This document shows positions 652 to 43,590 of a DNA stretch of 64,000 nucleotides, in pieces. Numbering within the stretch: the first letter of the stretch is position 1; each line of letters begins with the position of its first letter. The DNA is from Octopus vulgaris (taxonomy: Eukaryota): the NCBI GenBank assembly GCA_951406725.2, contig OX597821.1, positions 38,564,001 through 38,628,000 on the forward strand, given 5' to 3'. The position numbers and the translations under genes are program-made. Below the pieces are notes generated by a model. The model was given only the letters and a program-made list of their open reading frames with translations, searched no databases and was not told the DNA's origin.

Positions 652-1092
652 TTATAAATGCACTTAACACAATGCAGTGGGAATGAATTTGAGTAACCAT
701 TAACTAAATTAATAATCATAATTTACCTTAAGCTATGGATGAATTGAATTTAACTCTAGCCTCCCCATTATTATAAACAATAAGTAGCTAATTTAATTCA
801 CTGTGTGAGCATATGTGCACAAAACCATGGATGTGAATAAGCTAATATCTTCATGGATGTTTGTACAAGTGAGTGTATGTGTGCCATGCATCCTAGGCGA
901 GGGTGTTTATACATCTATATCTGTTAATGCTAATATTTATTACATTTATTACATGTATTGTGTAATTGTTGCTTATTTATTATTGATTTTATATAAAAAA
1001 TGAAGCTATATCCTTTAATTTGCTGCTTTTCTATACACAAATTGAGAAGATATCTTGCAGAACAGTTGTTATTTTGACAGGATACATCTTGC

Positions 1093-1243
1093 AATCACCT
1101 GAAAAGACACATCTATACCATCAGATACTCCTAAACCAGTTGCTTCATATCCCACCCATGAGGGATCGATGCGAGATTGGTTGAAACGATTCAAGTGATT
1201 AATGAACATTTTTGTATCTTCCATCTCTTTCATTATTCAAATA
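1093..1243 (+). ncRNA. Degenerate type I hammerhead ribozyme motif in a Penelope-like pLTR
   Basis: Stem I AATCAC (1093-1098) pairs with GTGATT (1195-1200). Core CTGAAAA (1099-1105, G8>A) and GAAA (1183-1186). Stem III spacing is 9 nt as in the other copies, but the sequence is mutated (ACGATTCAA). Probably inactive. Confidence 0.55.
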
Positions 1244-1347
1244 CCCAACAAACACTGTGAAAGTGAATGTGCTTTACTGGTAAGCTACCAGGTGTATACC
1301 ATACGATTTATTGTCTAATATATATATGTGTATACATATTACTTACA

Positions 1348-1741: not shown

Positions 1742-2379
1742 CATATTACTTACAAATGTCAGGTGAGCTGTTTTAGAAAATAAATCATTTGTTCATGAGT
1801 TGCTGAAGCAATTACTCATTTGTGGTTTCCATATGCAATGGAAAGAATAAAGCGTCTTTTATGGTGATAATGTGCTGGCTGTAAGGAGCATTTGAACCAA
1901 TGGACATGGTAAATATCAGCTCTAACCTCACAGCACTGTGTCTCATAAACAACTGTAATTATAATTATCATACAAATTATTGAAAAAAATCTCTATTATA
2001 GATCATGTTATTGCTTTTATTTTTATATCTACTTTTGCCAGGATTTTATTTAGTGTTTTTACTTATCTGATCTAATAAAGTGATCAGCAGCCAATACATT
2101 GATTTTAGTATTGGTTAAACCATTAACTCTTACTTTCTCTAGTAAGCTATTTGTATTTTTATTAGCTATAATTCAAATGTTTACATCAATTTATGTCAAA
2201 GACCAACTTGAAGAAGTCAAAAAGTCAACAAGTTTCATTCACAATAAAAAATTAAAAGGATGAAGAACAATATAAAACAATATAAAACTACATTGTTCAC
2301 ACATGAAAAATATATTTCTGTAAAAACAAAAACATATATATGTTTATACATACATACATACATATATATATGTGTGTGA

Positions 2380-2419
<40 letters not shown>

Positions 2420-3869
2420 GTAAATAAGTCATAAAAAGAAGAAAGAAAAGCAGTTAATGAAAGAAAATGTAGAGGTAAATGTAATTAAAGGAAGATTCCT
2501 CCTTCCCCACCTCCTTCTAAAATCTAATTTGTTTTTAATTTCATCATTTTCTCATTTAGTTTATTGGTTAATTTTATTTGTGTCACTGCAGATAGGTTGT
2601 AACACTGCTTGGTTCTCCATCAATTCTTTACCAATAATATATCAGTCGAGGTTCTCATTACAGTCAATATTCATGTATTACGTGTTTATCAATCCTCCTT
2701 AACACCACACACACACACATCATCATCTTCATGGTGTCAGTGAGAAAACTTCAAGTATATTTCAACCTACTAAAAACTGTGTCCATGTCTCACTCAAATC
2801 GCAATCTAATTATTTAAATAAAACAACAGGACACATTGGATCTTGTAGGATTAGATGACAGGATGAGTGACAAAAGTTGGAATAGTCATGGCTGGAATGC
2901 CTTTGATTCGTGCTGACTTGGGGCTAAGCATCATCATTGATGTTGTCACGACCACCACCATCATCATCGTCATCATCTTTAAAATATGGGCAGTGACCAT
3001 GACATTTTCTTCAAGGTCTTTGAGACTGGTGAGAGGAAATTAACCAAAGACCTGAGACTTGACTTCAATCCACTAAAGTCCAGCATGACTGGTGCTGTTT
3101 TATCCTTTTTACACACTGACTGAGGTCGTATGGGTTCATTAATTTCTATTTCTATCTTTGTCTCTTCAAAGTTGTTCAACTTAACAACATAGAGTAATAA
3201 ACTTTTCATTAATTTTACAAATTTTACAAAATTGTTGTTTCTCACACTCTGTGACACTTCATGAAACTAGATAGACTATTCCGTTGAGAACATAGTATGC
3301 TGTTGGTTGTATTAGCTGAATGCCACCCAGGTGCAGGAAATAAACTGGCAAGTTGTTTACATTGATTTATATAAGCCAAAAAAGATATTCTTGCTAGAAA
3401 TACCAGTCAAATCTCTCTCAAAATGACAACTTATCATCTGAAAAATACTATAGATATCTAGAAAATGTAGTCAAGACTAGAGAATCTCTGAAAACAAAGA
3501 TCGGGTAGTCGTGGCTTAAATTCCTTTGATTATTGATCTATTTGATCACAGCTAGTTTTCTTTACTTTCCGTCCCCAAGGAACTCATTATTTACTCTAAT
3601 ATTTTTTCTCTAAGTGTTTCCCAATTTCTCTGTCAAAGATGTGATACTCTGTTGATGTAAATAAACCAGTTCTCTAGAGTCTAGATTACCATTTATTATT
3701 TCTAAAATGCATCTTTATTTTCATATTTTGTAACAATTTATGCACAATTGTACAAATGGGAAAGATTTAGAAAATTCCTACAATTTGTTAGAGAAAAGGT
3801 TTCTGCTACTCATAACCTTTTCTGATATCTAATGGCTCAACCACAATACACCAAAGAATGAGCATACAT

Positions 3870-4245
3870 GGAATTACTTAATGTGCTAGAAAGAAAAACC
3901 AAGCTGCTATCAATGCACACTTTACTGTCTTAAGAAAAGGAAAAACACACTGGATAATGTAGCCCTACATTTATATGGTCTGAACAAAAGATGGCAGGAT
4001 TATTGTTATAGCATTTTTAACCATGAGAGTCGCCTGAGGTTTAACAACAACAACAACAACAACAACAATAAAGACCCTGATTGGTGTGACTTGATTTGCA
4101 AAAACTAACACTCAGATTTCCTTCAACTTACACTCAACATTATCCTATCTTAAGGGAAGGACATTAGGTACTGTAGTCCTAGATGGACAAGGAATGATGA
4201 TGTTGCGCTTGGAATATCTTTCAACAGGGGCTAAGCAACCACTCA
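3870..4245 (+). mobile_element. Old decayed SINE/LINE-tail repeats ending in GGGGCTAA(CAA)n, two adjacent copies
   Basis: Shared motif ATGTAG(T/C)CCTA...GATGG...GGGGCTAA/(CAA)n, also seen at about 2820-2935, 3390-3560 and 59010-59135. Confidence 0.45.
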
Positions 4246-4271
4246 ACCAAGATGTGAGAGAGACACTTTTG

Positions 4272-4333
4272 TTGTAGTAGTAGTAGTAGTAGTAGTAGTA
4301 GCAGCAGTAGTAGCAGCAGCAGTAGCAGCAGCA
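4272..4333. repeat. (TAG)n/(CAG)n trinucleotide microsatellite
   Basis: Direct reading of the sequence. Confidence 0.95.
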
Positions 4334-5511
4334 ACTTTCACTGGAGTAGTGGTGGAGGGGATAATGGTGGTTGTAGTGACAGAGATGATGTTGATAGTGC
4401 AACAATAACAGCAACCTTTCCCACAAAAGCTGGTTGTTATTATTGAAAGATATTTATGAACACTTTAAATATTTAGCTGCAAATACGAGGCAGTGTTCCA
4501 TTCCAAAACTATAATTAATAAATTCACTGTTTGTTGGGAGAAAATCTTTTCAGAATGAAACACACTTTAATTATAGCATCATTGTGAATAAATAAAATTA
4601 TTAATATATATTTGGGGTATTATATATTAGGCACATATGATATTTAGAAAGTAAACTGTCAAATTATGTCTTGTTTTGTCTGCAGAGTTGAAATATTATC
4701 ATGTTTATCACAGTGTTAGTTATGACAGGCCGTGGGTGAGGGTCTAAAAATTGGAGTCAATATCAGAAGGTAAATGAGATTTTCATACATTTTAAAAGTC
4801 TTTCCTCAGCTCAGTTGTCTTGTTTATATAACTACTTCTATCATTGAACAGAATCACTAAGACAACAGTTCTGACTTCTACAGTAGTTCAGGTAGCAAGC
4901 TCTACCTGCTGTTTGTGGTAGCTATTTCCTAAGGTGTGCAAACCACCAAATAATTACATTGGCTTGCAAAAGAAACCCTTTATTTATTGGAGATAAAATA
5001 AACCATTTTTACAGTTTGGTTTGCAGGCATATTTTAAACTTTTACTCTTGTTTTGTTTCCTAGCATGCTTATTTTCTTTTTTGAAATGTGACAGGTTGTT
5101 GGGTTTCATCACTTTTTATAGAGACTTAAACTGTATTACATAATAGCTTGCACGAAATTTGTTCATTGCTTAAACCAAGAAACACAGTTTGTTGACATGA
5201 TAAGCAAGAGAAACACTTACAAAGGAAGGAAGAAATACTACGATATTTCTTTGTATTTTATTACATTTGGAATTCAAATCCTACCACTGCAAACTTCAAC
5301 TTTTACACCTCATTAATAACTGTCTTTTACACACTATGATCAACACAGTTGATTATTTGCTTATTTTACTGGCTTCTGACCCACTAACAGAAGTAACCAA
5401 CTACATTGTGACCTCATCAGCACCACCAGTACTACAGAGCTGTAGCTGTTGGTGGCAGGTATTTACCAGTTGTAGGTACTGAGATTAAGTTTTAGGGGCT
5501 GATTAATTACA

Positions 5512-5675
5512 TGGTATGGCTGTCTGGTTCAGAAGTTCATTACCTAACCACCTGGTTTCATGTTCAGTCCCACTGCACAGCACCTTGGCCAAGTGTCTTC
5601 TACTATAGCCCTGGGCTGAACAAAGTCATGTCTATGGATATCATAGATAGAAACTAAAGTAAGACTGTTGTGTGT
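5512..5675 (+). mobile_element. tRNA-derived SINE, family B, 5' part, decayed
   Basis: TGGCTGTCTGG...GTTCAGTCCCACTGC...CACCTTGGCCAAGTGTCTTCTACTATAGCC, homologous to 49138-49300. Confidence 0.75.
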
Positions 5676-6532
5676 GTGTATATATATATATATATATACA
5701 TATATAAAAGATAAACTTACTTGGAAATGGATGTGTGGCGTTCAGTCATATAATAATATAAATAAAATATATCTAGATGCATATATACATACATATATGT
5801 ACATACATAAACAAAATGAAATACAACGACAAACGAGATAAAGAAATGGAAAACAAGACAAGTAACATAAAGAACGACCTTTCATCAGTTGTCTGCTGTC
5901 CATCTACTCCTCATTTCGAGCATTTAACAACAATATGAGGCAAATCAAAATAAAATTTGGGATTTGCAGAGGATCAATGTTGGTAACAAAAACAGGACAG
6001 TGGGGACATAAAACAAAACAAATGAAAACAAGCACAGAGGGCCATTAGGCCAGACGAGGTAAAGTAGTGAATGCTAGAGAAATATTGTTTTTGACAAGAG
6101 AAAAGATAGAAGAGGAGACAGATAAGAATATGTCTGATATATATATGCACACTCATACACATACTATATATGTTTTTATGTATGTATATGTGAGTGTGCA
6201 TGTGTCTGTGTGTGCGTGTGCAGAAGCAAGGATTTGTGTCTCCTTGTCTTAGCATCATGCAATATGTAAACATTACCTTCATACAAGTAGTGCCACTCAC
6301 TTCCAGAAGGGCATCCAGACATCTGCCTCCACAAACACCATTTGGCACAGGCAAATTCTGCCTCAATAAACTCTGTTTGACTTATACAAGCATAAAAAAG
6401 TAGAGATTAAAACATTGATTATTGAATTCCATTTCTCATTTAATAAACCTTTAGCATAAAATAAAATATCAACTAGCCATTGTGTGCCTCTGAAACACAT
6501 TGCTGTTGCTGTTTTACAAGGAGATCTCTGAT

Positions 6533-6935
6533 ATCATCATCGTCATCATCATCATCGTTTAGCGTCCGCTTTCCATGCTAGCATGGGTTGGACGGTTCAA
6601 CTGGGGTCTGGGAAGCCAGAAGGCTGCACCAGACCCAGTTTGATCTGGCAATGTTTCTATGGCTGGATGTCCTTCCTAATGCCAACCTCTCCATGAGTGT
6701 AGTGGGTGCTTTTTACGTGCCACCAGCAAAGGTGCCAGACGAGTCTGGCAAACGGCCGCGATCGGATGGTGCTTTTTATGTGCCACCGGAACGGGGGCCA
6801 GGCGAGGCTGGCAACGGCCACGAACGGATGGTGCTTTTTATGTGCCACCGGCACGAGGCCAGTCGGGGCGGCACTGGCAACGGCCACGTTCAGATGGTTC
6901 TCTTACGTGCCACCGGCACTGGTAACTCAGCTGCA
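6533..6935 (-). mobile_element. (GAT)n-tailed retroposon sharing its 3' tail with the RTE LINE (family C)
   Basis: (CAT)n-CGTTTAGCGTCCGCTTTCCATGCTAGCATGGGTTGGAC end and several internal tandem units containing GTGCCACCGG. Confidence 0.85.
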
Positions 6936-7641
6936 ATTTCCATTGATCAATTTCGATATGTCACCTTTAATTACCATAAAACTTTTGTCGCACTGTAAAA
7001 CTATTGTTACATCATACAATGTTTCAACTATTTCTCTGATTTTCATCCAATATTTGAAAAATCCAAAAATTCTGGAGAAAAACTGATTATCTTACAAGAC
7101 ATTTTCGAATATCTTGAAGCAATTTACAAGATGGAGCATAAAAGGTTGGTTAATGAATGAATCAATGATTAAAGTTTAGCATTTGATCATTAGCAGCTTA
7201 ATTAGTTGACAAGGGAAAGTTTTAGTTCATTAATTTAGGAACATCATGCTTGTGTAGATCTAAGAAAAAAGGAAATGGTTGCTTGAATATTTAGTGGCAG
7301 ACCTCTGGGACTCTGGATCAAAGAGTATTCAATTCCTTAGCATTAAATTTATGATCAAAATTTACCACTTGACCAGTGCTCCAGTTGGGGCCATCCAGTT
7401 TATGATTATGCTGATTTACTTTCACAAAACATATCATGTGACTATCTAGAAGCTTCTGTATTAACTTATGTTAGTGTATTAGTCTTTTAGTTGAGCCTTG
7501 TAGTGATTAATATTAATTAACTCATTACCACAGGTGATTCTTTAATAGCATAGATTCATCCAAGGACAGGAACTGCTTCAGGATGGAGTAAATTGACAGA
7601 TTTATTTAATATTATTGTTTGTGCAAAAACAACAACAACAG

Positions 7642-9798: not shown

Positions 9799-9814
9799 GA
9801 GTATAGCTAGGAAT

Positions 9815-11118
9815 TTGGCATACAGATGGGAGTTCACCAAAGTTTGGCTTTCAGCACCCTCTTGTTTATCATAACCCACCACGTAATAACAGAGGAGTTT
9901 AAGATTGGTTACTCTTGGGATCTCCTCTATGCTGATGACCTTGTTTTTATAACTGAATCACTACCTGAACAATGGAGGAAATTTCAGGTGTTTAAGCAAG
10001 GTCTGGAATCTAAGAGCTTTAGAGTTCATTTAGCTAAGACCAAAGTTCTAGTAAGTAGGGAAATGGCTCTGCTCAATATGGAGAAAAAGTGTAGATAGAA
10101 ACTCCATACAGTGTACCTGATGCAAGCTATAAACACATAAGAGGTGCAGCAGTAACTGATGGAAAGCAGTCTTAGTGTGTGGTACAGTAAACTCTAAATT
10201 GTATGGAAACAGACTCCCTTAAATGTCCAGGGGGATCCTTAGAAGTAGTAAATAGTTCCTGTTACTTCAGCAACCAAGTTAGCAATGGTGGCAGTAGTTC
10301 TGATAGTTCAGTTGTTTGAATAAGTACAGGCTTGGTAAAGTTCAGAGAGCTTCTATCTTTGGTGGTAACAAAGGGCCTCCCCACTCAGAGTGAAAGATAG
10401 ATTGTATGAAGCCTGCATGTGAACAGCTGTGCTACATTACAGTGAGACATGGGCTGTGACTTCTGAGGGCATGTGAAAGCTTGAAAGAAATGAAGCCAAC
10501 ATGCTCCACTGGATGGGTAATATCAATGTGCAGATATTACTGAGTGTAAGTGATCTGACAGAAAATATTGAGAATAAGAGGCATCAGATGTAGTGTGCAA
10601 GAAAGCAAGAAAGAAAACTGCACTGATATGGTCATATGATACATATGGATAAGGACAGCTGCATCAAGGAGTGCTGATCTCTAATAATGAGGGGATTGTG
10701 TAGAAGGGATAGAAGCAGGAAGGTGTGGGACAAAGTGGTGAGAAAGGAACTTCAGCTTTTGGGCCTCACAGAGGAGGGACAGATTTCTGGCAGTTTGCTT
10801 TTGGTGAGAAGATATGTCAGACTAATTAAAATTGTGACTGTCGATACATACAGGTATGTCTTCTGTGTCCCTCTTTCAGCTGAGAGGTCCTAGTTTTGTG
10901 AGCTTGCAGGAGCTGGTGCCTCGTAGAAGAGGCCATACCAGTGCCACATAAAAGTATGTGTGCCACTGTCACATTAAAAAGCACTCTGGAAGGTGGTTGG
11001 CATTAAGAAGGGGATCCAACTATAGAAACCCTGCCAAAACTAACAAATGGGAGCTTGGTCAGCTCCTGGCAAAGTGTACAACCCATGCCAGCATGGAGAA
11101 CTAAATGATGATGATGAT
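9815..11118 (+). mobile_element. 5'-truncated RTE-clade LINE, decayed reverse transcriptase and 3' end
   Basis: GVHQS(GS)...LLFII...LLYADDLV...GLESK..RVHLAKTKVLV, followed by RLYEAC...SETWAVT...LERNEA.MLHWM with stops and frameshifts. Ends in the family C tail with (GAT)n at 11106-11118. Confidence 0.88.
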
Positions 11119-14536: not shown

Positions 14537-17149
14537 TTAACTCTTGTTTGCATGGACAAAATAGATTTAAAATATTGTTGGTGCTGCTTGTGTTGCTGCT
14601 GCTGCTGCTATGAAATCCTTATAAATGTGATCACAACAAAGGATAAGAAAAATTGGATTAAACAGAAAAGATGGTGAAGGCATTGCTCAGGAGGTTTGGC
14701 CTCACAAACAAGTTCAGATCAAGAAGAATAACAATATAATGTGTTGAAGATCTATCTTTGTCAGTATGGAATAAAAATATAAGGATGACAGCAATATGTG
14801 AGGCTATAAAGATGATTCAAACAACACCCAGAATGCTGTGACATGAAGAGAATATGTCTCTAGTGGAGCTGAACCATTTTAGTCTGTATATGTGTGTGTT
14901 TAATGTTGTTTTAGATTTCATGTGAGACACAGAATTAGATGATAGTCTCTGGTGTGGTTTGTATATGGTTGTTATTTCTTAGTTCCAATTCAGCTCTGGT
15001 TGGGCAGATATGTACACAACCGGAAATATTATTAGATTACTGATGAATTTAAAGGGTTTCATTTCGTAGCTATAATGTCTCATAGAATATCCCTGTAGAT
15101 TTGTTATCCAACTCTGCATCCTACAATGGATGTAAGCAATACATCTATTCAATATATTTGATACAGTTGCACCGGTGAGGACAATAGAATTGAAACATGC
15201 ATGTGCAGATGTTTTATGCTGCACATATATATTGGACAGATGTAGAAATTTTATACTCATCACAAAAAACAAACAAACTGGTTAATAAATAAGTAGATAT
15301 GTTCTTTAGTACATTGTATAAATAACCAAGAATGCATAAAGAATAGGTACCTTCCATCTTTCTGCTAGAAGGCACCTATAGTTTATGTATTCCTCTCCCA
15401 AAATATTGGTTGCCAGGCAGAGAACAAGAACAATATGCTTTAAAGAGAATTTCTCAACCAGCCGACTACATTTGTGCCTTTACCAACTTTAAAAATCATA
15501 AAGATTCTCCAGTAAACACTTGATACAAGCCAAGATCTAAATTAATGAGATCATTCATTACTAATTTGATTATAAGTGTTTTGACTATTTACCTCTTTCA
15601 ACTTCACACACAAAACATCTTTTTAATATTTCATCTAAATTTTATGCTTTGAACAGTTTGATCTATAACCATCATCTAACATTTTACTCTTGCATATATA
15701 TATATATCAATGATTAAATATCATTTACTACCATGTTTCTGTTGATGAGACTTGCCTCTCTGTCTATCTACCTGCCCTCTTTGTAATGTTGATAAATGGA
15801 ATAAGTATAAAAATGAATCCATATGCAGCTGAAGATTGTTCCACATTTTAAAACTGATGTAATACTTGCATTGTTTAATTAAATGAAGTCACATGAAACG
15901 ATTGTACTGCACTGCCTTTGGATATCCTTGTTGCTTATTTTGATTATAATCAACCAATTTTGATAATACCATACCAAATTCTGGTGCCTTTAACTTAAGT
16001 ACCATATTCAACTGAATCTAAATTTCTACTGAACTTTAATTTGATTTTCACGGGAAGGAAATTTTCATTGAAGTCATGTATCGCCTTGACCTTCGAAACA
16101 TGGAGTAGATGAAATTAAGGCAACTGAAGAAGGGGAATTTTCCTTGTTTTGTGTGTCCTGTACTCTATTTTTTCGTTGTTTTAAAAAAATGTCCATTTCC
16201 TTGGTTTTGTGTTTATGTTTTCGTTTCTCATTGTGTTCGACGTTTTTTTGGTGTCCTGTACCCATATATGCATGTATATATACATGTAGAGGTAGGTACG
16301 TACATATATATATGTATATATGCATATGTTTTATTTCTTTAATAATTTATATATATATATATATATATTAACCTAAAATGCAGACATTTACGAAGGCCTC
16401 AAGATTGATATAAGGAAGCTATATTTGTAAATAATTGGTGATAATGTCATTGACACATTCTTAGTTCAGATCTCCTGATAGCAATCAGAGATCAAACCAT
16501 CCAAGACTTAGATGTTGATATTAAAATGTTTCATTGTTTAAGATGAGGCTTGATAATTTGATAGATTTGTTATGTTGTCAAGAGGATCATTCCACAACTT
16601 GGAATTTCATCATGTAAATACACTGATATTTCCTGGGATTTGAATGAGAATCTTGTACAATTGTGGTGTGTGTGTGTGTGTACGTGTGTGTGTGTATGTA
16701 TGTGTGCACGTGTGTATACATATATGTATATGGAATGTTCTTGAGAGCTTTGTTCAAAACTTGGGTACATATAACCAACAAAAATGGATGATGCTCAAAG
16801 AACTTCTCCTTCATCCAGAATCAAAACATTTGGGGATCCCTATTTCAGACCCCCAAAATGGTCTTGTAGCATATTATGAGGTCACAGGAATTCATTCAAG
16901 GAAAAAAGAATGGGTGGGGGTGGGGGCTGCCCCCCTCTTCTGAACCAAAATAAGGAAGTTGCAGCATATTAGGTCAGGGTACTTGATTCCACGCAAAAAG
17001 TCCAAGTTCTTTTTTTTTTTTTCTTAATGAAAATCGTGTGGGTGTTAATATAACAATTTACCAAATTTTACCGAGATTATGTATCAAATTATGCTTTACA
17101 CTTCCATATATTTAACTGTGCTTCTAGTGACTTCCGCCTTTCTATTAGA

Positions 17150-21826: not shown

Positions 21827-23332
21827 TCTATATATATAAAAGTGAAGTTGTGTGAGTGTCTGTCCCCTTCGATTTAGATTCCTAACTCCTCCCACATTTT
21901 GCGGTGCAGTTTAACCAAATTCGGGTATCTTATAGTCCGTGATTCATATCGAGCCTGTCTGGGTATTAGCGCGCGTCTACGATGAGTCTACGATTTTAAA
22001 AATAATTTAACATCATTTTTTTCCATTTCTTCCAACTTTTTCGTGTGTCGATGGCGGCGGAGTTGGCGTCCATGCTCACACCTGCACCTGTGTTGCTTCT
22101 CCCCATTCTTCCCTCCCTCGTAAAGTGTGACTGCGCATGCGCAGTCACACTTTCGAGCATGCGCAGTTACACGTTCGCGCTTGCGCAAGCAAACGTTCGC
22201 GCATGCGCAGTCACACTTTCGCGCATGCGCAGTCACACGTTCGCGCATGCGCAGTCACACGTTTGCGCATGCGCAGTCACACTTTCGCGCATGCGCAGTC
22301 ACACGTTCACGCTTGCGCAAGCAAACGTTCGCGCATGCGCATTCACACTTTCGCGCATGCGCAGTCACACGTTCACCTGTGCGCATATATGTGCGCATGT
22401 AGCATAAGACCATATATATATATCTATATATATAAAAGTGAAGTTGTGTGAGTGTCTGTCTCCTACGATTTAGATACCTAACTACTCCCACATTTTGCGG
22501 TGCAGTTTAACCAAATTCGGGTATCTTTTAGTCGTGATTCATATCGAGCCCGTCTGGGTATTAGCGCGCGTCTACGATGAGTCTACGATTTTAAAAATAA
22601 TTTACCATAATTTTTTCCATTTTAACGCATATTTTTTCGTGTGTCGATGGCAGCGGAGTTGGCGTCCATGCTCACACCTGCACCTGTGTTGCTTCTCCCC
22701 CTTCTTCCCTCCCTTGTGAAGCTGTGGGGAAGGGAGTGTAAGGAAATCAACGTCGTAAAGCGTTGTCAAGGAGACCAGCGTTCTTTTAGAACAACGACTT
22801 CATGGCTTGAAGTCGCCAAAACAGAAATCGCTAAAAAAGCTGAAACAGATCCACAAAAATGGCAAAAACCGCCACACAGGGCAGGTTTCCTGTGCAAACA
22901 ATTTGCACAACCGAATGTTTTAGTTGTTGCACAAATCTTTATATATAAAAGTGAAGTTGTGTGTCTGTCTCCTACGATTTAGATTCCTAACTACTCCTAC
23001 ATTTTGCGGTGCAGTTTAACCAAAACCGGGTATCTTATAGTCGTGATTCATATCGAGCCCTTCTGGGTATTAGCGCGCGTCTACGATGAGTCTACGATTT
23101 TAAAAATAATTTACCATCATTTTTTTCCATTTTAATGCATTTTTTTTGCTATTATATAAGGGAAGTAACTCTCTAAAAATGTCTACGTTGAGTCAACGAT
23201 TTAAAAAAAATTTACTATAATTTCTTTTCCATTTTTAATGCATTTTTTTGCTATTTTTTGGCTATAACTCTCTAAAAATGCTCTATAGTTATTTCCCTTA
23301 CAAACCCGAGCAATGCCGGGCGATACTGTTAG
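21827..23332 (+). mobile_element. Three head-to-tail non-autonomous Helitron units
   Basis: 5' TC(T)..TATATAAAAGTGAAGTTGTGTG starts at 21827, 22423 and 22936 with about 190-290 bp shared. The last unit ends with hairpin CCCG..CGGG then TTAG|T, matching the CTAG end at 27239-27242. Confidence 0.85.
22122..22375. repeat. 22-bp CpG-rich minisatellite (GCGCATGCGCAGTCACACTTTC), about 11 units
   Basis: Units start at 22133 and recur every 22 nt; 8 have a perfect GCGCATGCGC. Begins with a perfect 32-bp palindrome at 22122-22153. Confidence 0.95.
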
Positions 23333-25485: not shown

Positions 25486-25530
<45 letters not shown>

Positions 25531-25562
25531 AAATCAAAATAAGCAACAAGAATGACTCCGGC

Positions 25563-25653
25563 AATTTGGTACGATCGTTTCGTACTACATCATTTTATTA
25601 AATGTTGTAAGTATTACAACAGATTTAAGATGCTGAGTACTCATCAGCCAATT
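25563..25653 (-). ncRNA. Type I minimal hammerhead ribozyme with intact catalytic core
   Basis: Minus strand: AATTGG-CTGATGA-GTACT[long hairpin]AGTAC-GAAA-CGATCG-TA^CCAAATT. Core CUGAUGA and GAAA, G10.1-C11.1 pair, GUA cleavage triplet, stem I UUGG/CCAA, palindromic stem III ACGAUCGU. Confidence 0.85.
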
Positions 25654-25729
25654 ATAGAGGTTTTCCATTAATACAAAAATTTTCAAATCAAGTGGCAACA
25701 TTATAGAGAAAGTAGATATATAGACAAAG

Positions 25730-25776
<47 letters not shown>

Positions 25777-26121
25777 CATACATACATACATACATACATA
25801 CATAGACAGATAGATTTGGTGTATATATAAATATTATATAAAATTGAAATGTAAATAAAACAAATCTGCTGAATGAAATTAAATTCTTTTCATTCAGTGT
25901 AAATTAATGGAGTGCAACTGGTTACCATCTGAATAGTGTATGTAGAGTGGAATGGTGGATGTCATCACTCTCTTTGCAGGGCAAGTCATATCAAGAGAGT
26001 TAATTCCACTCTGAGCCATACTCACAGAAAATATTGAATTCAGTACTAGAAATCAAGAAAGTGATCACTTGTTCAACACTGTTTCATTGGTGAACTATTC
26101 CACCCCATGATAAATATTTAA

Positions 26122-26341
26122 CCCTTTCGTTACTGTATTTATTTTGAGATGATCTGTGTTTCTTTCAATTACTTTAAATATAACAAAGAATTTAGTAAAA
26201 TAACTTGGTTATGATTAAGCTAGTGCTAGGAACATAAATTGTGACAAAGGTTTGATGGGAGATTTTAATTAAAAACTTATGGAAACAAGACATTTGTACT
26301 CAGAGCCAGAGTCGGTTTCAGACGGGTTGATAACGAAAGGG
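26122..26341. mobile_element. piggyBac-type MITE, same family as 14316-14536
   Basis: TTAA TSDs, TIR CCCTTTCGTTA...TAACGAAAGGG, near-identical body. Confidence 0.92.
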
Positions 26342-26844
26342 TTAAAGGCCATTAGTAATTGAATGTTTTGTTCATCTTGGTCTAAGTAGTGTGCTGGTGA
26401 TATAATAATTTATAACATACAAGCTGCTACTGTCATACTCTCTACTCAAGTCATCCATAGCCGTACAGTGATCCATATATGAAATATTTTAACTTTATGA
26501 CAACTTAAATACATAAATTTAAATTGTATTGTTAAAATTTTAACAATTTGACATTAAGCTATAAATTAATTAATTTATGATATCATATATATAATTATTC
26601 ATTAAAACTAATTCAGTTGATATAATTAATAAATCTATTATGTTTATTAATTAACAAATGGATTTTATATTAGTTTGATGTTGAATTGCAGAGAGATTAA
26701 CTCAATATGAATGTACTTTGTATGAATACATGAAAGTACATAACAATGTCCAATTATATTTTATGTATTGCATTTATGTGTGTATATCATTTTGTCTGTA
26801 CTTTAATGGATATTGCTTACAAAGTGGAAAGGAAGTCCTGCTTA

Positions 26845-27242
26845 TCTCTCTATATATAAAGCTGAAGTTGTCTGTGTATGGCAGGTTTGGTAGCCTTCAA
26901 CTAACACTATCTACTCCAAGAGCATGCAGCACAAATTGACCAAAATTGAGAGTATGATAGAAGAAGGCTTGCTCTTCCTTCCGTAGAAGAAAAAATTCAA
27001 ATCAGACCATGTTAACACCAAAAATTATTTACATCAAAAAGGTGCTTTTTTTCTCTGAAAATCCCTAATTTTTGCGATTTTTTTAACTGCTGTGTCACCA
27101 TTTTTCGGTGTATTTCAACCCCCCCCAAAAAATGTTCACTTGAAGAGAATAACAAGCTACATAATGCAAAATTTTTACTTTTCAAAAATTCCAATTCTAA
27201 AGGGTTGAAACAAACCCGAGCAACTCCGGGCGATACTGCTAG
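26845..27242 (+). mobile_element. Non-autonomous Helitron
   Basis: A|TC 5' end (TCTCTCTATATATAAAGCTGAAGTTG), sub-terminal hairpin CCCG..CGGG, CTAG|T 3' end. Confidence 0.85.
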
Positions 27243-27603
27243 TTTCAAATATAAATGTTAACATTGTGTATAAATTCTCTCATTCTCTTTTGTCTTGTGT
27301 CATCTCTCTTTTTATTGACTGTGGACCAGCCATGCTCTCTTTATCTCTATCTCTTTCCATACATACATACGCACTACCAAAAATAACACACCTAATGGGA
27401 AAGTGCCGGCTACAAGCTATAAAAAGTATGTGAAACTTTTGTGAATTTCTGCAAGCAATAAGATCCCTAAATGCAATGACATTCATGCCTATACCCATCT
27501 GTATATGTACACATACAAATATACTTGCATCCATATTCATTATTAGTATTGGAAGAACTATTGGTTCAAATTAGTAATCTGTGTATCATACTTAAAGGAT
27601 ATA

Positions 27604-27737
27604 TACTGTTGAAAACCTTCTAAACTGCAGCATTTGTCTCAAGAAAGCGTCTCTTCTGTGTTTTTTTTTAACACCATACATCTATAAGAGATGCTTTCTT
27701 TAGATGAAATCCACAGTTTAGAAGGCATTCAACAGTA
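27604..27737. mobile_element. Small hairpin MITE, TA-flanked, with ~50-bp arms
   Basis: TACTGTTGAAAACCTTCTAAACTG...AAGAAAGCGTCTCTT is an imperfect reverse complement of AAGAGATGCTTTCTT...CAGTTTAGAAGGCATTCAACAGTA. Confidence 0.75.
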
Positions 27738-27834
27738 ATGCTTCAAGTACGCATACATACGCACATGCATATGTACATGCATACATTTGTGCACACATAA
27801 ACATATGCATTGACAACTAATGTAGGCTGTACAA

Positions 27835-28340
27835 ATCCAAGACTGGAAACATCAAACACATTATTGCCAGCTGCAAGAGAATGTTTTCCAGATATCATTT
27901 TCCAATGAGGTATCTTGTGGTGGCCAGAACAATCTGGAACAAGTGAACCAAAAAGAATGTGGAAGGTTCACTATATTGAGACTAATGTGTCATAAGAATA
28001 TTGGTGGAGCTTATAAATTAAAACAGTCACCAAGTTAAAACACAACCAGCTAGATTTTGTGGTGTGGGACCACAAGCAAAAGATATGTTCTGCAGTGGAA
28101 ATCAGCTGCCCTCTGGACACCAATGTGGTTAGAAAACTGCAACAGAAAGAGAACATCTATGGATCATTGAAAAGGAGTTTGCAAATCCAGTATCCAAAAT
28201 ACACTTTCAGTTTGATACCTATTATTGTACAAAGGCATCTGGAGCAAAATATAGCTGAACTTGGGTTCTTGAGGAGAGAATGTAAATCCTTTATTCATTA
28301 CACTACAAATGATCATGATAACTGGGACTATAAAAATCTG
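27835..28340 (+). mobile_element. R4/Dong-like non-LTR retrotransposon 3' remnant (restriction-like endonuclease), older copy
   Basis: IKHIIASC...VVART...KHNQLDFVVWD....C..VEISCPLDTNV...KENIY...FSLIPIIV. Confidence 0.75.
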
Positions 28341-28454
28341 CAAGACCTTCTTAAGATTTAAAGGAAGATGAACAAAACAAGATGCTTTCCTTCACAATCT
28401 TACTACCAAGTAGGTGACTGAGCAAAATTAACTGTAAATTAAAAAGTGTAAGAG

Positions 28455-28822
28455 AACACATGATCGTTGCCCCCTCATTATTGAGTATGGCCATTACACG
28501 AGGCTTAACTGTTATCGGTGCTGTGATCGAATATGACTTTTTAGCCCAGCTAAAGATCTACAATGTCTTGTACGGAATTGGCAGCTAAAACCTTTACCGC
28601 CAATAGCCAGCTGTAGTTGTAACTGGGCTTCATGTACCTTTGCATGTCGTTTGAGTCCTCCTGCTGAATTACACTCCCTTCTACATACCTGACAGATATG
28701 ATTATTATGGTGTGTAGCACCACCACCAATGGCCTGGTTGTCAATCATCTGTCTTGCTTTATGATTACGAAGATGACTCAAGTCCAGCTTTACTGAGGCA
28801 AGGTCTTGCACAGACACTGCAG
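28455..28822 (-). mobile_element. RTE-type LINE 3' end with C-terminal C2H2-like zinc fingers
   Basis: HICQVCRRECNSAGGLKRHAKVH and FSCQFRTRHCRSLAGLKSHIRSQH fit the C..C.R.C.S..GL..H.R motif ending RTE ORFs; followed by a short 3' UTR. Confidence 0.7.
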
Positions 28823-43112: not shown

Positions 43113-43590
43113 ACTGGCATCTGTGCTAGTGGAGCGCTAAGAGTCCCATACGAGTGAGATCGTTGCCAGAGCAAGCTGGCCTCTGTGCCGATGGCATATT
43201 AAAAACACCATTCGAGCATGATCGTTACCTGTGTCGCCTTACTAGCACTTGTGCTGGTGGCACGTGAAAAAACATTTGAGCGAGGTCGTTGCCAGTACCG
43301 CTGGACTGGCTCCTGTGCAGGTGACACATAAAAAGCACCATTTGAGCATGGCGGTTGCCAGTACCATCTAACTGGCCCTTATGCCGGTGGCATGTAAAAA
43401 GCACCCACTATACTCTTGGAGTGGTTGGCATTAGGAAGGGCATCCAGCTGTAGAAACTCTCTCAGATCAGATTGGAGTCTGGTGCAGCCATCTGGTTCGC
43501 TAGACCTCAGTCAAATCCTCCAACCCATGCTATCATGGAAAGCGGATATTAAAAGATGATGATGATGATGATAATGATGATGATGATGAT
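43113..43590 (+). mobile_element. Family C retroposon, longer copy with several internal tandem units
   Basis: Repeated GTGCC(G/T)GTGGCA(C/T)GT(A/G)AAAA units, then the conserved tail and (GAT)n. Confidence 0.85.

Follow-up and report, generated by a model that had tools for sequence, protein, structure and literature searches.

The 205-bp element at positions 25529 to 25733 of the minus strand is read here, with a probability of about 90%, as a 5'-truncated insertion of a Penelope-like element (PLE) bearing the motifs of the Hydra clade, in which only the terminal repeat (pLTR) that carries a hammerhead ribozyme (HHR) was copied into a (TA)n tract; the ribozyme is predicted to work only as a dimer. 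The window, meaning the whole 64,000-nucleotide stretch of Octopus vulgaris DNA under analysis, also holds a second copy of the same lineage and a decayed end of another family. The features are as follows.

25529..25733, minus strand: truncated part of the pLTR of a Hydra-type PLE family, with the short 3' end; 198 of 205 positions identical to the downstream pLTR of the full-length copy L166
25648..25651, minus strand: 5' strand of HHR stem I, UUGG; helix 98.8% paired, compensatory change in 3 of 4 pairs
25641..25647, minus strand: core box CUGAUGA, invariant in 21 of 21 aligned rows save the N position
25582..25640, minus strand: extended stem II domain of 59 nt, with a basal helix of about 10 bp, an internal loop and an apical helix, from fold and covariation
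25594..25599, minus strand: AAUAAA hexamer within the stem II internal loop and 24 nt ahead of the cut, a putative polyadenylation signal; AAUAAA or AUUAAA in 20 of 21 aligned sequences
25578..25581, minus strand: core box GAAA, invariant
25571..25578, minus strand: self-complementary octamer ACGAUCGU of stem III, predicted dimer interface; 8-bp duplex of -10.0 kcal/mol
25569..25572, minus strand: GUA triplet (25572-25570) and predicted cut between 25570 and 25569, placed by alignment to Rfam Hammerhead_1
25566..25569, minus strand: 3' strand of HHR stem I, CCAA, from sequence and covariation
25489..25527, no strand: (TA)n at the 3' junction of the element, the insertion target; 28 of 30 copies have a TA run after their 3' end
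25735..25804, no strand: (TA)n/(TACA)n where the 5' end is cut short; in 15 of 30 copies the 5' junction is TA-rich
15828..16036, plus strand: another truncated copy from the same PLE lineage, more diverged than the first; 78.5% identical to L166, core intact
973..1310, plus strand: decayed 3' end of a different, older PLE-type family, with an inactive-looking HHR at about 1093-1200; from genome copies

Continuity with a coding Penelope-like element

Both repeats of the window element's lineage are preserved in a full-length copy (L166, G000:C14:19642000-19649000), a unit of 3465 bp in the arrangement pLTR-ORF-pLTR. It runs from (TA)n through a pLTR with HHR (96%), a tail, the 5' UTR, an RT-endonuclease ORF, the 3' UTR, and a second pLTR with HHR (97%) and tail to a further (TA)n tract. 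The two repeats are identical at 318 of 325 positions, and the window copy is 97% identical to the downstream one. Because the tail precedes the 5' UTR in this copy, the 96-nt tail can be recognised as the start of the 5' UTR. The longest upstream extension among the copies (L012) enters an open frame that ends in a GIY-YIG endonuclease (Pfam match of 23.5 bits, cut-off 22.6). Searching the genome with the endonuclease domain gave 19,796 candidates, of which 150 were scored, and the window's element lay 0.3-1.6 kb downstream on the same strand in 29 of the 30 best endonuclease loci, L012 itself included. The 205 bp are thus the pLTR of an RT-endonuclease element, which bears out the link to PLEs that an earlier interpretation of the window, called here the sequence-only reading, had proposed.

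A single ORF with a reverse transcriptase (RT) and, at the C-terminal end, a GIY-YIG domain is found in relatives of the window copy only, broken in L166 and intact in L167 and L171; HHR-bearing pLTRs as direct repeats, the optional tail and inverted 5'-truncated copies are also present. By tblastn there is no PLE ORF within the window, and no unbroken ORF was seen in the window's own subfamily, where L166, L168, L169, L176 and L070 are frameshifted or stopped. A sister family, about 70% alike in the HHR and 64% in the endonuclease, has unbroken ORFs of 957 and 949 aa between two HHRs (L167, 1877-4750, with about 4.6 kb between the HHRs; L171, 1871-4720), and its many near-identical copies suggest recent activity. 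ORFs of 1071-1072 aa occur in a third family (L172, 1457-4675; L173, 6384-3169). All four unbroken ORFs (949-1072 aa) are of Hydra type and contain two Asn-rich inserts (16-17% Asn).

The proteins share the motifs RW(K), DKT and YRDD, a CxCX5C linker, and CxxC and CxH around the conserved E and N of the endonuclease, and CCHH is absent from them; RWK is replaced by RWR in L172 and L173, and by RWI in L166, which is decayed. These motifs and homologues identified the RT, as neither the ORFs nor three homologues matched a Pfam RT family. Twenty homologues of the ORF proteins were found, nine with a precomputed PF26215 assignment and none named as a PLE. The RWK/DKT, CxCX5C and CxxC/CxH motifs, the lack of CCHH and the insertion into (TA)n point to the Hydra clade, an assignment made by motif; the units, at 3465 bp in L166 and about 4.6 kb in L167, are longer than the 3 kb under which members of the clade generally stay.

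The genome searched comprises 2.80 Gb in 227 contigs. With the window element as query, 1845 candidates were obtained and 40 scored, the full-length ones being 97-99% identical and spread over many contigs, and a pattern of the core plus the lineage's stem bases matched at 882 sites (reversed control, 0), in keeping with the earlier expectation of a dispersed, high-copy element. Ends and junctions were counted in the best 30 of the 1845 candidates, selected by likeness to the query and not at random. The 3' end is fixed at two points in these copies, short as in the window in 19 of 30 and with the 96-nt tail in 11, and a script found a TA run after it in 28 of 30, as against 111 of 2666 background 24-mers (about 4%). 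The expected targeting of (TA)n therefore holds, and at the window locus (TA)n does lie on both sides of the element, at 25489-25527 and from 25735 onward. The 5' ends vary in position, from near the boundary of the window copy to about 1.3 kb further upstream. Two fixed 3' ends abutting (TA)n together with ragged 5' ends indicate that the window copy is 5'-truncated. An inverted partial copy lies nearby in 9 of the 30, an arrangement also known from published PLEs. The second copy in the window (15828-16036, plus strand), overlooked in the sequence-only reading, has a 59-nt stem II, a ACGAUUGU stem III and the long tail.

The sequence-only reading had instead taken the element for a self-contained, non-autonomous unit of about 200 bp, a retrozyme or mini-PLE that would be transcribed, cut, circularised and reinserted on its own. 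Its many short dispersed copies, 97-99% identical, would suit such a life cycle, a recent preprint derives retrozymes from pLTRs and counts monomers (10.64898/2026.07.22.740005), and another HHR family of this genome does form a tandem array of 545-bp units. Retrozymes are, however, defined by tandem units with an HHR in each (PMC7229834; 10.64898/2026.07.22.740005). A direct repeat within 1.5 kb was found in 0 of the 30 best of 1845 candidates, and the window locus shows no head-to-tail array. The 5' ends form a continuum that reaches the endonuclease and RT, with no unit boundaries fixed independently of the coding element. The contigs of four presumed-RNA runs (Logan) gave cover of the element at family level, with no joints, end pile-up or poly(A) loose end, and are uninformative on expression. 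On the 30 best copies the retrozyme identity was rejected, and an independent life cycle for the 205 bp is very improbable; the sequence is read as the pLTR of a coding PLE whose 5' boundary varies between copies.

The array mentioned above (L177, G000:C1:33098000-33107000, 2244-7570) consists of 9.8 tandem units of 545 bp that are 99% alike, each with one hammerhead core, a 26-nt spacer and the palindrome ACGUACGU. It has no Hydra-like ORF match and, by its sequence, looks like a retrozyme-like array of another family.

Other repeats were noted in the window. Very high-copy interspersed repeats, judged by contig depth, lie beside the element at 26110-26310 and 26810-27310. LINE-type retrotransposon fragments occur on the plus strand at 9811-10095, with a weak RVT_1 match, and at 28017-28358, where the frame resembles by eye the C-terminal end of RTE/CR1-like ORFs. 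Minisatellite-like tandem repeats are found at 22133-22374 (22/66 bp), 6705-6919 (62 bp), 43176-43405 (64-66 bp) and 23079-23285 (102 bp).

A hammerhead predicted to act as a dimer

On re-reading, every catalytic nucleotide that the sequence-only reading had placed on the minus strand is present at its position, and the type I core (CUGANGA, GAAA and NUH) occurs in order with stems I and II. The alignment to Rfam Hammerhead_1 at 25564-25652 covers the core and stems and reaches 19.6 bits (E 0.018, 181 bp searched); the model treats 51 nt as an insert, the penalty for which keeps the score under the gathering threshold of 34. An Rfam scan of the whole window gave no hammerhead among the 150 matches listed of 183 rows, those listed being microsatellite noise. 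The extended stem II noted earlier, about 59 nt long, corresponds to the domain 25640-25582, which folds at -13.2 kcal/mol, a value equalled by 3 of 1000 mononucleotide shuffles. Folding z-scores are -2.05 for the 106-nt region and 0.25 for the whole 205-nt RNA, which folds no better than its shuffles and is predicted to form an inactive hairpin. A chance motif was rejected, given a fold better than all but 3 of 1000 shuffles and 882 genomic core matches against a control of 0.

The octamer of stem III is an 8-nt palindrome, both self-complementary and too short for a monomer, as had been supposed; the computed probability of the active monomer fold is 2e-5. The strand-swapped active dimer was computed at -43.4 kcal/mol, as against -36.6 kcal/mol for two monomers. 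It is not the minimum, which is an inactive cofold at -47.0 kcal/mol. The HHR is predicted to self-cleave only as a dimer.

Conservation was assessed in an alignment of 21 distinct sequences, hand-chosen as intact-looking HHRs of related subfamilies, with a mean identity of 77%. The core boxes are invariant save the N position; 91.4% of 525 cells pair in the named structure, and 12 of 25 pairs change on both sides. Compensatory changes affect 3 of the 4 pairs of stem I, 5 of 10 in the basal and 3 of 8 in the apical helix of stem II, and 1 of 3 in the palindrome, where the third pair switches from G-C to A-U among subfamilies and self-complementarity is kept. The covariation score is 0.40, compared with 0.20 for shuffled and at most 0.12 for slid alignments, although the shuffles overstate its significance because the rows are related and were chosen as intact-looking HHRs. 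RNAalifold, unprompted, recovered stem I and both stem II helices, with double changes in 10 of its 21 pairs, and the basal helix has a slightly different register in the alignment, where support is best, than in the single-sequence MFE. Core and stems are thus conserved among copies and covary, a condition on which the earlier claim had been made to depend, and as judged from the alignment the hammerhead structure is under selection in the lineage.

The stretch at 1093-1200 had been described as another copy of the window element with the same long insert. It is of HHR type and has a long stem II, 77 nt in better copies of its family, which have ACAAUUGU as their palindrome; the member in the window has a CUGAAAA core and a disrupted palindrome. 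Its stem II has no homology to that of the window element: blastn gave short patches in the AT-rich ends and none in the stem II insert, and identity with the window element was rejected in favour of another, older family. A search for that family gave 1876 candidates, of which 40 were scored, at 77-84% identity, and a Hydra-like endonuclease lies upstream in 1 of 12 loci (L085).

Long stem II arms and their hexamer

The stem II of the window lineage measures 57-60 nt, whereas none of the 26 Hydra rows in File S2 of PMC8557442 exceeds 24 nt. Genome-wide, the pattern CTGAWGA-spacer-GAAACNWWNGTA was matched 4471 times with a spacer of 8-38 nt (control 163), 13,794 times with 39-69 nt (control 109) and 1684 times with 70-100 nt (control 137). 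A spacer of at least 39 nt hence occurs in 15,478 of 19,949 HHR-like cores (78%), counted as pattern matches with stems unchecked. Several unrelated long-arm families fold into hairpins by computation, and Hydra-like ORFs are flanked by four of six inverted or repeated HHR loci (L178, L179, L181 and L182). The long covarying stem II, dominant among the HHR-like cores of this genome, is the unusual part of the finding, while the palindromic stem III, cleavage as a dimer, the targeting of (TA)n and solo HHRs left by truncated PLEs are already published.

Among the roughly 19,900 HHR-like cores with a GUA site, the stem III octamers include ACGAUCGU, ACAAUUGU, ACAUAUGU, ACGUACGU and ACUGCAGU. As the octamers differ between families, each family could pair only with like palindromes. 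One locus (L180, G000:C1:8394000-8399700) has two short-spacer (21 nt) HHRs, inverted and 4.4 kb apart, with no Hydra-like ORF match between them; these may belong to another PLE clade.

There are precedents for a long arm. The HHR of the spike-moss PLE-X has a stem II region of about 53 nt (PMC8557442, File S2). Naiads are said to be without canonical HHRs, and eight of them have core halves 35-50 nt apart (PMC8557442, with Naiad_Ovul in File S1); these half cores may be long-stem-II hammerheads like the octopus ones. PLEs of O. vulgaris have already been annotated, with 31 families recently active and ribozymes unmentioned in the available text (PMC13282606), in the main text of which the words "hammerhead" and "ribozyme" are absent. 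No report of long-stem octopus HHRs was found in the literature, the supplements of PMC4209133 and 10.64898/2026.07.22.740005, the repeat library of PMC13282606 and Lunse et al. 2017 lying outside the scope of this search. The family supplies natural hammerheads with a long covarying stem II in large number. Because they score under the cut-off of Rfam and escape descriptors that allow only a short spacer, ribozymes are probably undercounted in genomes of this kind.

AAUAAA and AUUAAA are the two common polyadenylation signals. Their presence in the arm raises the possibility that the long stem II carries such a signal, so that host 3'-end processing and ribozyme cutting would compete at about one site and yield either a polyadenylated mRNA or a cut template for retrotransposition. 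This proposal would add to the truncated-PLE reading and not replace it, and it is unlikely on present evidence. In 20 of 21 aligned rows one of the two hexamers sits in a predicted unpaired loop 23-26 nt before the cut, and a U/GU-rich tract follows it. When 27 clusters were drawn from the 168 HHRs in the loci examined, 7 of the 13 with long stems had a hexamer 8-40 nt before the cut, and none of the 14 with short stems did. Yet it is missing in the other 6 long-stem clusters, the 7 positive ones represent about three lineages, and its chance presence is 1-13% per shuffled domain. The other strand of the loop is also partly conserved and A/U-rich, and genomic copies ending in A12 after the site gave 0 matches. 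The hexamer as a polyadenylation signal in an octopus HHR arm is offered as a lead only. A broader version would make octopus PLEs the bearers of a long-armed dimer HHR class, some 15,000 copies of which standard descriptors miss, with stem II a functional module whose polyadenylation signal lies about 24 nt before the cut, 3'-end processing and cleavage alternative fates controlled by folding, and truncated copies able to clip or terminate host transcripts; this is improbable as a whole.

Effects on a host transcript were also considered for the window copy, which might have been co-opted to cut such a transcript by pairing in trans with RNA of other copies. The copy has an intact core, stems and palindrome, and at least 882 copies keep the core. 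Intactness is, however, expected of a young copy only 1-3% diverged from its relatives, published minimal PLE HHRs cleave weakly even as dimers in cis (PMC4209133), and the nearest relative in the window (15828-16036) is on the opposite strand. Pfam was run on 108 of the 177 low-complexity-filtered window frames; there were three matches, two zinc-finger-like scores on repetitive frames and the RT fragment at 9811-10095, and neither a host exon nor an exon chain was identified among these 108 frames. The intronic position raised in the sequence-only reading accordingly finds no host gene or intron among them. In the flank at 25810-28800, contigs of three presumed-RNA runs and one run of unknown kind were compared, and cover in the three falls nearly all on repeats and is uninformative on expression. 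Co-option in trans is scarcely credible, and the lone window copy, which has no same-strand partner within the window, is most likely an inert passenger of the PLE from which it was copied.

Proposed mechanism and relation to known elements

Minimal dimer-type HHRs of metazoan PLEs are reportedly also described by Lunse et al. 2017. In the survey of Cervera and de la Pena (2014, PMC4209133) they share with the window element the type I form, a stem I of 4-6 bp and a palindromic stem III, and they too are mostly solo motifs read as truncated PLEs, with opposite-strand pairs 100-700 bp apart (PMC4209133; review PMC6765202). Their helix II has 7-8 bp and a small loop, as opposed to the two-helix arm found here. 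They did not cut as monomers and cut weakly as dimers (PMC4209133; review PMC6765202).

The closest known elements are the PLEs of the Hydra clade, including Hydra-1_Obim of Octopus bimaculoides (Craig et al. 2021, PMC8557442), which have the same single ORF with RT and C-terminal GIY-YIG, the same RWK, DKT, CxCX5C, CxxC and CxH motifs without CCHH, and the same type I HHR near the 3' end with a short self-complementary stem III and insertion into (TA)n. The units described here are larger, at about 3.5 kb (4.6 kb in the sister family) as against "generally" less than 3 kb, and the proteins have 950-1070 aa with Asn-rich inserts, compared with 709 aa for Hydra-1_Obim, which is listed in the available text without any pLTRs, whereas they are clear here (PMC8557442). 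Compared by eye, the window family would be different from Hydra-1_Obim.

Metazoan non-LTR retrozymes (Cervera and de la Pena 2020, PMC7229834; Li et al. 2026, 10.64898/2026.07.22.740005) resemble the window copy in their type I HHR, non-coding nature and relation to pLTRs; they form tandem units of 150-450 bp that give circles, while the window copy stands alone and is continuous with a coding element. Poseidon_Ac (PAc), a PLE of another clade (Frangieh et al. 2024, PMC11167929), shares the AT-rich target, the pair of 3' ends with its optional tail and the HHR in the pLTR, although its tail is 30-40 bp as against 96 bp here, and its HHR lies over the start codon and not about 180 nt upstream of it. 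In purified form the PLE protein nicks AT-rich DNA, and reverse transcription from two internal sites defines the optional tail (PMC11167929). The PLE protein is needed for the PAc HHR to cut, cutting is dispensable for insertion in vitro, and no RNA-seq read ended at the HHR cut of PAc (PMC11167929).

By analogy with this published PLE work, the element's own enzymes, endonuclease and reverse transcriptase, likely placed the copy of the terminal repeat in a (TA)n run. The GIY-YIG domain would nick TA-rich DNA, and reverse transcription would begin at either of two sites within the pLTR RNA, leaving the tail optional, and would often drop off early. For the window copy, priming at (TA)n, a start at the proximal site and a stop after 205 nt would account for the insertion. 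The two hammerheads of a pLTR-ORF-pLTR transcript would join by way of the palindromic stem III, probably aided by the element's protein, and their cleavage after GUA would set free an RNA of unit length. The long stem II is likely a tolerated arm that is nevertheless selected for pairing, and it would close the core and compete with the inactive GUACGA/UCGUAC hairpin.

The window locus itself is ordinary transposon debris. What it leads to is a Hydra-type lineage not yet described, in which two HHRs enclose intact ORFs (L167 and L171), a ready substrate for the role of PLE hammerheads because these were dispensable in the only in vitro PLE assay, and a long arm carrying a putative poly(A) signal, which is a testable lead.
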